Positions 5,497 through 39,239 of a stretch of 64,000 nucleotides of DNA are shown here, one piece after another. Position 1 is the stretch's first letter; every line of letters starts with the position of its first letter. A model generated the notes under the pieces. The model ran no database searches. It was given only the letters and a program-made list of their open reading frames with translations, and had not been told where the DNA came from. The stretch is from Candidatus Gottesmanbacteria bacterium (GTDB lineage Bacteria > Patescibacteriota > Microgenomatia > UBA10105 > UBA927), in assembly GCA_023245335.1 (NCBI GenBank), contig JAHFKK010000001.1, positions 1,000,019 to 1,064,018 of the forward strand, read 5' to 3'. The position numbers were made by a program, and so were the translations under genes.

Positions 5497-6132
5497 CTAC
5501 GATAAAGTGCGGAGTTTCATGCGAACCTCATGGACGAGTGTCACGCGTGCTTTGGCACTTTTTATAATATTAAGCTCATCCGTGACCACCTTCAATACGG
5601 GAATATCATTATCTTCGGCAAGCCATTTGTGATTGAGCATATCCAGAAGCTCCAAATATTTCATCGTGATGTGACGTTCATATCCTCGGCCGCGGGCGTC
5701 GATACGATGTGCAAGCTCGCGAATCGACGTCTCGAGGTAAATGATGAGATCCGGTTTGGGGAAATACGGTTCAAATGAACGATAAATTTTCTGGTACAAC
5801 CGCCACTCACTTTCGTCCATATTGCCTAGGACGTGCTGTGCCTTGGCATAGGAAAACGCATCCTCCTGGATCGGTGTATCCAGTACGACCGGCCGCACGA
5901 CAAGCATATTGCGCGTTTCCAAGATCTGCGAAATTTTTTCCATGAGAAAGAACGTCTGCGAATGAAATGCCCATCGTTTCATGTCCGTATAAAATCTCGG
6001 GAGAAACGCATTTTCCCCGAAATTTTCCTCGATGAGCCCGAATCGGAACTCTTTGGCGAGCAATCTCGAGACCGTGGTCTTCCCGCTTCCCATGGTTCCC
6101 ATGACGGTAAGATAGAATAATTTCTTCTTCAC
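5497..6132 (-). CDS. Deoxynucleoside kinase (dNK/dCK/dGK family)
   Basis: P-loop GTMGSGKTT, the ERS-like motif (here ETSIRE) and ~210 aa length are typical of deoxynucleoside kinases. Confidence 0.75.
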   Translation of the reverse strand: MKKKLFYLTVMGTMGSGKTTVSRLLAKEFRFGLIEENFGENAFLPRFYTDMKRWAFHSQTFFLMEKISQILETRNMLVVRPVVLDTPIQEDAFSYAKAQHVLGNMDESEWRLYQKIYRSFEPYFPKPDLIIYLETSIRELAHRIDARGRGYERHITMKYLELLDMLNHKWLAEDNDIPVLKVVTDELNIIKSAKARVTLVHEVRMKLRTLS

Positions 6133-7883: not shown

Positions 7884-7997
7884 CACTGGAATCAAAAATA
7901 GTCAGTTGCGTGACATGACGATTTGACACCACATGACCTAATGTATAGCATACGAGTTGCAAGGAGCACATTTACAGGGAGCGGAAACTGGAAATTT

Positions 7998-8165
7998 TTT
8001 AGCGTGTGGCCCCGGTCACGACACAATCGGACCGTGGGATACGAGGAAGGCGTAAGCGAAACTATCTGCGGGTACGCCTCGGTTGCACTCTCAACCGCAA
8101 TCCGGATGAAAAACCCAACCGTAAGGCTGGATATAGATCAACCGGTTATGAGTCCGCCTCTCTAG
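7998..8165 (+). ncRNA. glmS ribozyme (glucosamine-6-phosphate-activated self-cleaving riboswitch)
   Basis: Found 150 nt upstream of the glmS ATG. It aligns to the conserved core AGCG...ACGAGGA-GGCG-UAAGCGAAA-CUGCGGGUACGCCU-CGGUUG...CAACCG...CCGUAAGG (Rfam RF00234: GACGAGGA..UAUCGAAU..GGCGGAUGCCUCC..CGGCUG..CAGCCGUAAGG). Confidence 0.55.
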
Positions 8166-8314
8166 ATCATTCTTACAAATTTACAAACAAAGGGCAGCAC
8201 ATAGCTTGTTCTGTCTTTAACTACGTTTATTAGGTGTGTCACGTATCATGTATCAATGTGTCACGCTCACATTCCTGACACTTGAGACCTGACGCCCATG
8301 ACACTATATATCTT

Positions 8315-10117
8315 ATGTGTGGAATATTCGGATACATCGGTCACAAAACAAACGCTCCGACGATCGTCCTTGAAGGACTCAAACGTCTCGAGTATCGCGG
8401 CTACGACTCCTGGGGAGTTGCCGTGGTGCCGGAGGGAGACGCCGAAAACATTCTCGTCAAGAAAAAGGCAGGAAAAATCGGCGCCGCGACCGTAACGAGC
8501 ATGCCGAAAGGGACACTTGCGTTCGGACATACCCGGTGGGCTACCCACGGCGGAGTGACGGACGTGAACGCCCATCCGCATCTCGACTGCACCAAAACCA
8601 TTGCAGTCATCCATAACGGGATCGTCGAAAATTACGAAGCACTCAAGGAAATGCTCACGAAAGAAGGGCACCACTTCGTATCCCAAACAGATACGGAAAT
8701 CATCGCGCATTTAGTGGAAGAAAATCTTAAGGCCATGAAGCCCGCCATTCGGGACGCCCAACCTGCTTTTTCCAAAGCGGTACAAAAAGCGTTTAATGCT
8801 CTCGACGGGCTTAACGCGATTATCCTTATAAACACCACGTCACACGAGATGGTGGCCGCAAGAAACGGCTCACCGCTTGTCGTTGGATTCGGTGACGGAG
8901 AAAATTTTCTCGCAAGCGATCCTGCGGCACTTCTCCCACATACCAAGCAAGTGCATTATCTGGAAGATGATGAGATGGTCATCGTGAGACCGGATGCCAT
9001 CCATATCTTTAACGCGAGGACCGGCGAACGGGTGCGGCCGCGGAAACAACTTCTCACGTGGACCGAAAAAGACGCGGAGAAAGGACAGTATCCCTACTTC
9101 ATGCTCAAAGAAATTTACGAGCAGCCCGGTCTTATGAGCGAAATTGCATCAGAATCGACGGAACAAGCTAAAGAATTGGCAAAGCAATTCGCTACTGCCT
9201 ACCGCGTATACGTCGTCGGAGCCGGCACATCCGGTCATGCCGCGCGGGCCGCATCGTATTTGTTTTCGGATATCTCCGCACATCTTATTAACTGGGGTAT
9301 CGCAAGCGAATTTGATCATCGGCTAAACGTGATACCGGAAAAAAGCCTAGTGGTAGCACTATCGCAATCGGGAGAAACGATGGATCTTATGGAAGTAGTG
9401 AAAAAAGCAAAGGCGAAAGGGATTGGTGTCGTTTCTATCGTCAACGTGGTGGGTTCTTCCCTATGGCGTATGGCCGATTTCCGTATGCCTATCGGAGCCG
9501 GACCGGAAAAAGGAGTGGCATCGACCAAGGCATTTACGTCAAAAATAGCGCACCTTATCCTTATCGCGTATGCAATGAAAGGAAACATCAGTGATGGACA
9601 AAAACTGCTCATACGGGCCGCCAAAAGCGCCAAAGAAGCGGTAAGCGAATCAAACGTCAAGCGTATCAAAGCGCTTGCGGCGAAGATGAAATCGGTCGAA
9701 CATATGTTCGTCGTGGGTAAGGGTATCTCCTATCCGGCAGCGCAGGAATGCGCGCTCAAGATAAAGGAAATATCCTATATCCATGCGGAAGGCGTCGCGG
9801 CAGGCGAACTCAAGCACGGCCCCCTAGCGCTCGTCACCAAAGGGACGCCATGCATCGTCATCGCGCCCAATGATGAGACCTATCGTGACGTCCTGGGAAG
9901 CGCGATGGAAATGAAAGCGAGAGGCGGTCATATCATCGGGTTTTCATATAAAAATGATGAGGTCTTTGATGATTACATACCGGTCGCCGATGCGGGTGAG
10001 GCGACGATTATCCCGAACGTCATCGTGGCCCAGCTCCTCGCCTACTATCTGACGCTTGAACGGGGCTTTGACCCCGACATGCCGCGAAATCTCGCCAAAA
10101 GCGTAACCGTGAAATAA
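8315..10117 (+). CDS. glmS: Glutamine--fructose-6-phosphate aminotransferase
   Basis: MCGIFGYIG N-terminal nucleophile Cys, two SIS domains, C-terminal ...KSVTVK. The upstream Met at 8282 would put the catalytic Cys at residue 12, so 8315 is preferred. Confidence 0.93.
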   Translation: MCGIFGYIGHKTNAPTIVLEGLKRLEYRGYDSWGVAVVPEGDAENILVKKKAGKIGAATVTSMPKGTLAFGHTRWATHGGVTDVNAHPHLDCTKTIAVIHNGIVENYEALKEMLTKEGHHFVSQTDTEIIAHLVEENLKAMKPAIRDAQPAFSKAVQKAFNALDGLNAIILINTTSHEMVAARNGSPLVVGFGDGENFLASDPAALLPHTKQVHYLEDDEMVIVRPDAIHIFNARTGERVRPRKQLLTWTEKDAEKGQYPYFMLKEIYEQPGLMSEIASESTEQAKELAKQFATAYRVYVVGAGTSGHAARAASYLFSDISAHLINWGIASEFDHRLNVIPEKSLVVALSQSGETMDLMEVVKKAKAKGIGVVSIVNVVGSSLWRMADFRMPIGAGPEKGVASTKAFTSKIAHLILIAYAMKGNISDGQKLLIRAAKSAKEAVSESNVKRIKALAAKMKSVEHMFVVGKGISYPAAQECALKIKEISYIHAEGVAAGELKHGPLALVTKGTPCIVIAPNDETYRDVLGSAMEMKARGGHIIGFSYKNDEVFDDYIPVADAGEATIIPNVIVAQLLAYYLTLERGFDPDMPRNLAKSVTVK

Positions 10118-36883: not shown

Positions 36884-37561
36884 GACCGACTTATTATGGC
36901 AGATTTATCACGGATTACAATGGGATTCCCACAAAAAATCCCTGGCGGAGCCAGGGAAATTTGTTTAATCCACCCGATCTTCCTTTGCGCCTTACCTACT
37001 ATTCGTAGCGCGGCGCAAAGAGCGATCTTTAGCGGACTTCGGTGCCTTTAGCAACCGGATGGTGATAGGGTTCACCCAGAGCAATGAAAAGAAACCACAC
37101 CGCATAGAGCGGAAGCAATTATCTTTTCGTGCATAGGGTTAGGGATTTGAGAGAAAACTAGAAAAGATCATCCCGCTAAATGCGGAATATCTCGATCATG
37201 AACTAGTTTTCAAATAGAAAGGAGGTGATCCATCCCCAGCTTCGGCTAGGGATACCTTGTTACGACTTAGTCCCCATCGCTGAACTTACCTTCGACTCGT
37301 AAACGAATCTTCGGGTACTTTCAACTTTGGTGGCTTGACGGGCGGTGTGTACAAGACCCGAGAACGTATTCACCGCGGCCTGCTGATCCGCGATTACTAC
37401 CAATTCCAACTTCATGAGGTCGGGTTGCAGACCTCAATCTGAATTGAGGCGAAATTTTAGAGATTTGCTTGGCATTACTACCTTGCGTCCCGTTGTTATT
37501 CGCCATTGTAGGGTGTGTGTGGCCCAGGGCATAAGCGCCGTGCTGACTTGACGTCGTCCCC

Positions 37562-37690
37562 TCCTTCCTCCCCCTCTCTATAAACAGAAGTAAATAGTAA
37601 TGAGTAAATAGTAAGTAGATTAAAAACAAAAACGTTTTCTTTCTATTCACTACTCACTATTTACTATTCACTCTTCCGTCCATAGAGAGG
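37562..37690 (-). repeat. ~128-nt palindromic expansion replacing 16S helix 40, built from a TAAATAGTAA-type repeat unit
   Basis: It lies between GGAGACCGCC and GAGGAAGG, where E. coli has the 15-nt h40 hairpin. It forms the stem ccctctctat...atagagaggg with internal tandem repeats taaatagtaaNgag. Confidence 0.7.
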
Positions 37691-37760
37691 GGGCGGTCTC
37701 CGATGACACTTGTAACATCGGATAGGGGTTGCGCTCGTTGTCCCACTTAAGGGAACACCC

Positions 37761-37791
<31 letters not shown>

Positions 37792-37905
37792 GCTGTGCTA
37801 CCATCCTTGCGGATCCCCTCCCATTTCTGGATGGGTAAACGGTAGCATGTCAAACCCTGGTGAGGTCCTTCGCTTTGTCTCGAATTGAACCACACGCTCC
37901 ACTGG

Positions 37906-37937
<32 letters not shown>

Positions 37938-38326
37938 TAAGCTTGCGCTCGTATTCCCCAGGCGGTCTGCTTAACGCGTTAGCTTACGACAGACAGATTG
38001 CTCTGCCCATCTAGCAGACATGCGTTTAGGGCTAGGACTACGCAGGTCTCTAATCTGCTTCGCTCCCCTAGCTTTCGTGTCTCAGCGTCAGATATTGGCC
38101 AGAAAGGTGCCTTCGCCTTCGGTGTTCCTCATGATATCAACGCATTTCACTGCTTCACCATGAGTTCCCCTTTCCTCTCCAATCCTCGTAGTTTACCCAT
38201 CTCGTATCCAACGTCGAGGTTAAGCCTCGAGCTTTCAGATACGATGCGGTATACCGCCTACACGACACTTTACGCCCAGTAAATCCGGATAACGCTTGCA
38301 CCCTACGTATTACCGCGACTGCTGGC

Positions 38327-38560
38327 CTGTCACACATTGTGACAAACTTTGGACTATATCTTCATCCCGATTCGTATCGGGAGTCTCGCGTATAGTCTCT
38401 GAGGACTCTCTCCGCCAAAGGCGGAGGTTGCCTGCTGATTGTCTTGATACATGTCTGCTGTGTAGCAGAATACTTCGCGGTATATCAAGGTGTTCCAGCA
38501 TATAGCGAGATTTTCTTTCATTACATTACTGTATGACTACGCACCAAACCCCTTACCGGG
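38327..38560 (-). other. ~234-nt insertion in 16S rRNA at E. coli position ~514/515 (within the 515F primer site)
   Basis: Conserved flanks ...ACTACGTGAC | insert | GCCAGCAGTCGCGGTAATAC. The insert is hairpin-rich and has no ORF. Confidence 0.7.
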
Positions 38561-38987
38561 GTCACGTAGTTTGTAGGTGCTTATTCGCCAAAGCCTGTCG
38601 ACCTTGGCAAAAGAGGTTTACGATCCGAAAACCTTCATCCCTCACGCGGCGTCGCTCGGTCAGACTTTCGTCCATTGCCGAATATTCCCAGTTGCTGCCA
38701 TCCGTAGATGTATGGCCCGTGTCTCAGTGCCATTGTGGGGGGTCGTGCTCTCACACCCCCTATCCGTCGTCGCCTTGGTAGGCCTTTACCCCACCAACTA
38801 GCTGATAGATGCAGGGCCACTCCTCCTCCGCGCGGTTAAGCGCTTTGACCTTACGGCCTCATGCGGTATTACCCCGTCTTTCGACGAGCTATCCCACAGA
38901 AAAGGGCATGTTCCCTGCTTATACTCACCCGTCCGCCACTGTAAATTAAATCTTGCGACTCAAAAAACCGTTCGACTTGCATGCTTA

Positions 38988-39030
<43 letters not shown>

Positions 39031-39239
39031 AAAAAAATTGACGTAAGGAGCATTTGTTTGACCAAATTCTGCTTACATCAAAAAAAATCCTATCACCATT
39101 CGATTGTTAAAGTACTCTCCTGAGAGAAAACGTAGATTTTCTCCCAACGCGACCTAGTCAAGCTGGCAGGTGCTTTCGCGATTCCTGCCGTCGCTGCTTT
39201 TCCCGGTTAGTGAAAAGCGAGGTGATGCAAAGAGCGAAA

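Follow-up and report, generated by a model that had tools for sequence, protein, structure and literature searches.

[quoted passage not shown] The gammaproteobacterial introns are reportedly inserted at sites ~795, 1078 and 1495, unlike the site S516 that is described here. The tRNA introns of Azoarcus and Anabaena belong to subgroup IC3. They are about 200–250 nt long, contain no ORF, have a minimal periphery round the P3–P9 core and are located in tRNA anticodon loops.

In the survey of Tsurumaki et al. 2024 (PMC11270868), inserts are given for 48% of the CPR 16S genes, and 134 of the inserts match the Rfam group I model. Of these 134, 49 are without an annotated ORF; the usual cargo is LAGLIDADG_2 and LAGLIDADG_3. 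The inserts of CPR rRNA are missing from transcripts according to the published reports (PMC9698310, PMC11270868), and the former summarises the removal from transcripts as having been seen in metatranscriptomes. In eukaryotes, S516 is a classic nuclear site of group I introns, which are of subgroup IC1 or IE and occur in amoebae, myxomycetes, algae and fungi (PMC9223047). Examples are Nae.S516 of Naegleria and the myxomycete intron Dalp.S516 with 74 others (PMC9223047, PMC1464144).

The 16S insert and its group I fold

The DNA analysed here, a stretch of 64 kb that we call the window, contains, on its minus strand, a complete gene for 16S rRNA (39036..37218). The gene matches RF00177 (SSU_rRNA_bacteria) with 1297 bits over model positions 1–1533 and is 1819 nt long, or 1582 nt without a 237-nt insert (38563..38327, minus strand) which splits it between U516 and G517 of E. 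coli. The insertion site was placed using the 515F primer, which corresponds to E. coli 515–533 (GUGCCAGCMGCCGCGGUAA); an insertion at U516|G517 is named S516 in the nomenclature of rRNA introns. The site is located in the 530 loop of helix 18, at the decoding centre. In RNA sense, the 16S sequence around the insert reads ...AAGCACCUACAAACUACGU / GACCCCGGUAAGGGG...UGUCACAAUGUGUGACAG / GCCAGCAGUCGCGGUAAUAC, and the insert itself starts with GACCCCGG and ends with GUGACAG.

The boundaries of the 237-nt insert were derived from intron-less relatives (...ACTACGT|GCCAGCAG) and from the P1 and P10 pairings. By sequence alone the boundary is ambiguous by 1 nt (a G), and the group I rules, a U.G pair at the 5′ splice site and a terminal G, settle it at U516|G517. 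The initial annotation had reported an interruption of ~234 nt at the 515F site of the 16S gene. The interruption stands; the length is corrected to 237 nt, as the GAC after CTACGT, which had been assigned to the exon, represents the first three bases of the intron when compared with the intron-less relatives, and the 5′ end is 3 nt longer. The annotation had further stated that the insert lacks an ORF and so is no homing-endonuclease intron. This agrees with our search, in which no ORF longer than 69 aa overlapped the insert and none of the overlapping ORFs had a Pfam match. With no endonuclease gene of its own, the intron would be unable to home alone.

The insert is very probably a compact, ORF-less group I intron located after U516 in the 16S gene of a Gottesmanbacteria-like CPR host, and a streamlined descendant of an S516 lineage. 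The Rfam model RF00028 (Intron_gpI) matched it over the full length (38573..38327, model positions 1–253) with 73.5 bits, compared with a gathering score of 50, and an E value of 9e-17. With 237 nt and this match, it falls under the definition used for CPR rRNA insertions, namely an extra 100 nt or more compared with E. coli 16S and an Rfam group I match. The MFE fold of the insert region had −86.4 kcal/mol compared with −62.6 ± 5.0 for shuffles (z = −4.8), and none of 200 shuffles was as stable. Without any constraint, the MFE fold yielded P1, P1a, P2, P3, P4, P5, P5a, P6a, P8 and P9, which are all the nested helices. A search for P3–P7 core elements, as suggested in the initial annotation, recovered a complete group I core with the P3/P7 pseudoknot, and the four hairpins pointed out there correspond to P9 (38328–38344), P8 (38366–38381), P6a and P5a of the fold.

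In the relatives, 5′ splice sites were identified by a conserved exon end together with a complementary guide within 120 nt. A total of 77 introns were delimited in this way, 63 of them unique, and about 15 loci with truncated or long ORF-bearing introns were left out. A hand-drawn P1–P10 structure with the P3/P7 pseudoknot was scored on two MAFFT alignments, A1 (19 sequences, 464 columns) and A2 (39 sequences, 413 columns). Direct pair counting on these alignments, if anything, under-counts the variable helices P1a, P5a and P9. The features of the gene and of the intron are listed below in window coordinates.

37218..39036, minus strand: 16S rRNA gene (RF00177; spliced length as above)
38327..38563, minus strand: group I intron, 237 nt, site S516 (RF00028 match, intron-less relatives and P1/P10 pairing)
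38564..38570, minus strand: last 7 nt of the 5′ exon, ACUACGU, 5′ strand of P1, with U 38564 as the splice-site U; pairs with 38536–38542; U.G in 39/39 relatives; three exon positions covary with the guide
38548..38562, minus strand: P1a hairpin in the P1 loop, ACCCC GGUAA GGGGU; in the MFE fold; 73% paired, with compensatory changes (A1)
38536..38546, minus strand: internal guide UGGU-GCGUAGU; UGGU (38543–38546) forms P10 with the 3′ exon, GCGUAGU (38536–38542) forms P1 with the 5′ exon
38522..38533, minus strand: P2 hairpin; compensatory changes in 4/4 pairs (A1); missing in some relatives
38505..38510, minus strand: P3 5′ strand UCUCGC; partner 38384–38389; compensatory changes in 5/6 pairs; 98–99.6% of cells paired
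38384..38389, minus strand: P3 3′ strand GCGAGA; partner 38505..38510
38433..38500, minus strand: P4-P5-P5a domain; P4 invariant; helices recovered by the MFE fold
38495–38500 / 38433–38438, minus strand: P4, UGCUGG / UCAGCA; invariant
38483–38489 / 38443–38449, minus strand: P5; compensatory pairs 6/7 (A1) and 6/6 (A2)
38455–38468, minus strand: P5a hairpin; short, carried by P5
38403..38432, minus strand: P6 (GG/CC) and P6a hairpin CUCCGCC-UUU-GGCGGAG; in relatives the loop has long inserts or LAGLIDADG_2 ORFs
38393..38399, minus strand: P7 5′ strand GAGACUA, with bulged A 38398 and G 38397 of the presumed guanosine-binding G-C pair; pseudoknot with P3; partner 38351–38356; invariant in 39/39
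38351..38356, minus strand: P7 3′ strand UAGUCC; invariant; the conserved J8/7 GAUGAAGAUA is just before it
38365..38382, minus strand: P8 hairpin; compensatory changes in 6/7 pairs
38328..38344, minus strand: P9 hairpin UGUCACA-AUG-UGUGACA; in the MFE fold; compensatory changes in 6/7 pairs (A1)
38327, minus strand: terminal G (omega-G); G in all family members
38323..38326, minus strand: first 4 nt of the 3′ exon, GCCA (G517–A520), pairing with the guide in P10

In the 19 relatives of A1, 88.3% of the cells were paired, compared with 33–44% when the 3′ partners were slid by 1–3 columns, and 44 pairs were changed on both sides compared with 17–25 in the slid controls. In the 39 more diverse sequences of A2, the values were 92.5% and 34–44%. 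Compensatory pairs numbered five of six in P3 and 6–7 in each of P5, P6a, P8 and P9, while P4, P6 and P7 do not vary and are therefore uninformative for covariation. A conserved P3–P9 core with the P3/P7 pseudoknot is found by both the model match and the covariation. The terminal G and the GG of P10 are invariant, and the pairing of UGGY with GCCA is present in 86–96% of the cells, with alternation of C-G and U-G. The pattern G(A)GACUA / UAGUCC of the predicted guanosine site is the same in all 39 sequences.

Nine matching combinations of the guide and the exon end (its final six bases) were seen over the 77 loci, for example CTACGT/GCGTAG (34 loci), CTCCGT/GCGGAG (14) and CTTCGT/GCGAAG (8). 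Covariation of exon and guide in P1 is partly by construction, because complementarity was used as the criterion for the 5′ splice site. Despite this built-in criterion, the guide, which is 20–85 nt inside the intron in the delimited relatives, falls into one fixed block of alignment columns beside the invariant GG of P10. Compared with its nearest relatives (L028, L036, L074, L023 and L027), the window's intron shows 7–11 double compensatory changes and 1–5 broken pairs. These double changes indicate that the ribozyme fold is under selection in the window's lineage. The intron is near the short end of the family and lacks the longer P5 extension which is common in the relatives; an intron as short as this could need host factors or splice slowly. 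The periphery seen in the fold consists of P2, a short P5a and one P9 only, and the IC1 periphery (P2.1, extended P5abc or P5d, P9.1/P9.2) is missing. As the core is IC1-like but the IC1 peripheral elements are absent, we do not give the intron a formal subgroup label.

The splicing mechanism that we propose is the established group I pathway fitted to the anatomy of this intron. Once the pre-rRNA has folded, P1 would form between the guide 5′-UGGU-GCGUAGU-3′ and the terminal ACUACGU of the 5′ exon, and its splice-site pair would be a U.G wobble. The G-C pair of P7 beside the bulged A would bind an exogenous guanosine, which would attack after U516. The UGGU of the guide would then hold GCCA of the 3′ exon in P10, and the terminal G 38327 would enter the guanosine site. 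Attack by the freed 3′-OH of U516 would join U516 to G517 and restore the 530-loop sequence GUGCCAGCAGUCGCGGUAA. We infer that the intron is catalytically active and is removed from the mature rRNA, since its core is intact, a domain of 237 nt in the 530 loop is implausible and CPR inserts have been published as lacking in transcripts.

Host, intron-less relatives and alternative explanations

The 16S exons of the window were ~92% identical to those of the Gottesmanbacteria MAG JACRMP010000025 (L028/L105) and 94% identical to those of JAKAFY010000018 (L022/L103), both of which bear the intron. As its 16S exons are 91–94% identical to those of MAGs that were submitted as Candidatus Gottesmanbacteria, the host belongs to the CPR/Patescibacteria. 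The comparison with CPR 16S insertions, which the initial annotation had recommended, thus leads to a Gottesmanbacteria-like host within the CPR and to a published class of insertions. Gottesmanbacteria contigs share the gene order PAP2 phosphatase – 16S – HAD hydrolase – YfhO with the window, whether or not they bear the intron.

Three syntenic intron-less relatives were found by means of the PAP2 neighbour: GCA_040960215.1, GCA_023245355.1 and an ENA scaffold (L106, L108, L109). Their 16S genes have no insert and read ...CAAACTACGT|GCCAGCAGTCGCGG (...ACUACGU|GCCAGC...), which is the predicted ligated junction; the intron-less site as a whole is ...CAAACTACGTGCCAGCAGTCGCGG.... The exons of these three are 91–93% identical to those of the window, the same range as for the intron-bearing L105 (92%) and L103 (94%). 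The existence of syntenic relatives with the exact junction indicates that the element is an optional insertion and not an assembly artefact; in our reading it was acquired by insertion.

The bases 505–507 and 524–526 of helix 18 pair across the insertion site (window 38323–38326 and 38564–38575). The pair 506–525 covaries in intron-bearing genes, with A-U in 18, G-C in 42 and C-G in 2 of 63, and this covariation across the intron shows that the intron-bearing 16S genes are functional. In the window, the internal mismatch to primer 515F (U525) is a compensated change, as A506 on the other side of the intron retains the pseudoknot pair of helix 18.

No 23S or 5S rRNA gene is located within the 64-kb window, where the 16S gene stands alone between the PAP2 and the HAD/YfhO genes. 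The rRNA genes appear to be unlinked in this genome, and relatives share the order of the 16S neighbourhood.

We weighed the group I intron against other explanations of the insert. It might be a degenerate or host-dependent relic, or an intervening sequence, which is either excised in the manner of RNase III without ligation, leaving a fragmented 16S, or spliced only with a protein cofactor. Few members of the family are as short as this insert, which no longer has the long P5 extension of many relatives, and the same gene contains a second insert, the hairpin at 37575–37687, which looks like a classic intervening sequence. RNase III intervening sequences likewise consist of extra sequence in the rRNA gene that is missing from the functional rRNA. 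They are, however, simple extended hairpins at helix tips that are cut without ligation, whereas the S516 element is a ribozyme fold in the loop of the decoding centre; it is composed of several helices within the strand of the 530 loop and is no long hairpin replacing a helix tip. Its core is intact and invariant in the family (P3, P4, P6, P7, J8/7, terminal G, U.G and P10), compensatory changes have preserved its helices even in comparison with its closest kin, which points to ongoing selection on the ribozyme fold, and a break in the 530 loop would sever the selected 505–507/524–526 pseudoknot region. A relic or an intervening sequence is therefore improbable.

Retention of the 237 nt in the mature 16S as an extra domain, the expansion segment that the initial annotation had offered as an alternative, would be in keeping with the unusual length variation of CPR rRNAs. 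The insert is nevertheless placed in the 530 loop of helix 18, it possesses a full ribozyme core and no extension of a helix, and equally related organisms are without it at the exact exon junction; in addition, metatranscriptome work as summarised in PMC9698310 reports that such inserts are missing from CPR rRNA. We consider such retention very improbable. An assembly chimera in which unrelated sequence was joined into the 16S gene is hardly conceivable, given that independent assemblies (~21 GTDB genomes and 71 metagenome contigs) have the same family at the same nucleotide, that Gottesmanbacteria contigs keep the flanking order PAP2 – 16S – HAD – YfhO whether the intron is present or not and that both junctions follow group I rules. 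What the annotation had also proposed, a small group I intron without an ORF, is strongly supported by the RF00028 match, the covariation, the P1 and P10 pairings and the intron-less junction, and this intron would presumably be self-splicing.

Relatives at S516 and comparison with known introns

GTDB was scanned, using one genome per species, for a G directly followed by GCCAGCAGYCGCGGTAATAC (the terminal G plus 3′ exon). The scan gave 29 loci, about 21 of which contain GAKATAGTCCA, a hairpin and a G right before GCCAGCAG. A metagenome scan with a core-plus-exon pattern yielded 71 further loci, so that the intron family is represented at this site by ~90 further loci in total. The GTDB records are labelled Gottesmanbacteria, Levybacteria, Microgenomates, Parcubacteria, Spechtbacterales and Saccharibacteria; there are also labels from outside the CPR, namely Omnitrophota, Planctomycetota, one Gammaproteobacteria MAG and one Cyanobacteriota MAG. 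L028, L023, L013, L027 and L016 independently passed the Rfam gathering score for group I introns. MAGs labelled Omnitrophota or Planctomycetota (L005, L007, L010, L013, L017, L021 and L029) and many metagenome loci (e.g. L030, L046 and L058) contain members of the family on contigs of up to 221 kb. Most of the copies from Omnitrophota, Planctomycetota and metagenomes repeat the start of the 3′ exon: their own first six bases are GCCAGC as well, and these pair with the GCUGG bases of the guide that later form P10. No mention of group I introns in the 16S genes of Omnitrophota or Planctomycetota was found among the 12 top-ranked of 266 literature matches. Further inserts are seen in the 16S regions of two relatives: in L016 (Levybacteria), a group II intron domain (RF01998, 50 bits) was matched at 5604–5693 on the minus strand, just past the 3′ end of the 16S gene, and L023 has an extra ~180 nt at another 16S position (alignment columns 1677–1847).

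Longer inserts at the same site encode LAGLIDADG_2 homing endonucleases in L011, L014 and L015 (E 1e-33 to 1e-41), and in L014 and L015 the ORF is upstream of P7. The core of the window's intron is clearly present in L014 and L015; L011 and L024 are without the core motif CAGAGACT...GAKATAGTCC, and the insert of L024 contains an ORF similar to those of L011, L014 and L015. In L001, an ORF for a 23S_rRNA_IVP four-helix protein precedes the internal guide sequence and seems to be placed in the P1 loop. The LAGLIDADG_2 ORFs of L011, L014 and L015 indicate that the S516 lineage is or was mobile. The window's copy is not autonomous and is best read as a streamlined descendant of this lineage, which includes LAGLIDADG_2-bearing members.

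Over all pairs, identity of introns and identity of flanking exons were weakly correlated (Spearman 0.11). In some pairs, including L040/L088 and L029/L054, introns 84–89% identical reside in 16S exons that are 79–80% identical; for L040/L088 the values are 89% and 79%. The low intron identities of L023 and L074 are an artefact of normalisation to the longer sequence, caused by inserts in the P6 loop, and were not used as evidence. The weak tracking of exon by intron identity suggests that the intron moves horizontally between distant hosts.

In size, in the lack of an ORF and in its minimal periphery, the window's intron resembles those of Azoarcus and Anabaena, but it is inserted in rRNA and its J8/7–P7 sequence GAUGAAGAUAUAGUCC is closer to the Tetrahymena/IC1 type than to the IC3 type of these two. 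Like the 16S introns of Gammaproteobacteria, it lengthens or defeats PCR-based surveys. With the CPR 16S group I inserts of PMC11270868, it has in common the host group (CPR, here a Gottesmanbacteria-like member of the Microgenomates), the gene, the Rfam model, the ORF-less class and the presence of LAGLIDADG_2 in related copies, and nothing essential differs. The element is real but not of a new sort, as group I introns with and without ORFs have already been published in CPR 16S genes. The family of the window's intron extends to Omnitrophota, Planctomycetota and other MAGs, which are outside the coverage of that survey.

With the eukaryotic S516 introns, the window's intron shares the site (after U516, before GCCAGC), the U.G at the splice site, the logic of P1 and P10 and the terminal G. 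The P7 strands of the myxomycete S516 IC1 core, CAGAGACUA / UAGUCC (CAGAGACTA / TAGTCC), are letter-identical to those of the window; an identity of this kind is a resemblance typical of IC1-like cores and would be no test of common descent. The eukaryotic introns are ~480–1150 nt long and located in nuclear rDNA, whereas the window's intron has 237 nt, is bacterial and lacks their P2.1, P5d/P13, P9.1 and P9.2 periphery. The endonucleases also differ, being LAGLIDADG_2 in the related bacterial copies and of the His-Cys box type in the eukaryotic S516 introns.

The bacterial copies may represent one mobile S516 lineage distributed across the CPR, Omnitrophota, Planctomycetota and others, which perhaps shares ancestry with the eukaryotic nuclear S516 IC1 introns. 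We regard this as rather unlikely; hints in its favour are the identical insertion nucleotide, the P7 strands identical to those of myxomycetes and the weak correlation of intron and exon identity. If it were true, one ribozyme lineage would have colonised a single rRNA site across domains, and the 237-nt copy would be close to the minimal functional form. The occurrence of the S516 family in phyla other than the CPR and the coincidence with the eukaryotic S516 site are the sole part of the present results that might repay more study. The locus itself provides one well-delimited CPR rRNA intron with matched intron-less alleles in syntenic relatives, and the family provides a ~60-sequence alignment of a very small rRNA group I ribozyme, a possible model of a minimal ribozyme.

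Primer sites, the second 16S insert and a glmS ribozyme

Two bases of the 515F site precede the intron, and the other 17 of the 19 primer bases remain contiguous. The best genomic 515F site, AGGCCAGCAGTCGCGGTAA, has two mismatches at the extreme 5′ end that result from the intron and one internal mismatch that is intrinsic to the exon. Intrinsic mismatches number 2–3 for 806R and 3 for 341F. Most of the 515F/806R mismatches are intrinsic to the exons and not caused by the intron, which is located upstream of and outside the 515F–806R amplicon. The expectation of the initial annotation that the intron blocks 515F/806R surveys was overstated, as it costs the two 5′-most bases only. Amplicons that span position 516, e.g. 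341F–805R and 27F–1492R, are lengthened by 237 bp, and 16S callers may truncate the gene.

The second insert in the 16S gene (37575–37687, minus strand) is 113 nt long, AT-rich and forms an almost perfect hairpin (MFE −73.2 kcal/mol, z = −10.5). It replaces the 4-nt loop of a helix of the 3′ domain at Rfam model position ~1157, which we take to be helix 40. Among Gottesmanbacteria relatives, L027 has no such hairpin, L028 a short one and L023 a long one. The appearance of this insert is that of an expansion or of an RNase III-type intervening sequence, not that of an intron.

A further ribozyme of the window is located at 7990–8155 on the plus strand, where RF00234 (glmS) was matched with 53 bits compared with a gathering score of 37. 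Directly downstream of it, an ORF of the GlmS type with glutamine amidotransferase and SIS domains extends from 8282 to 10117 on the plus strand.
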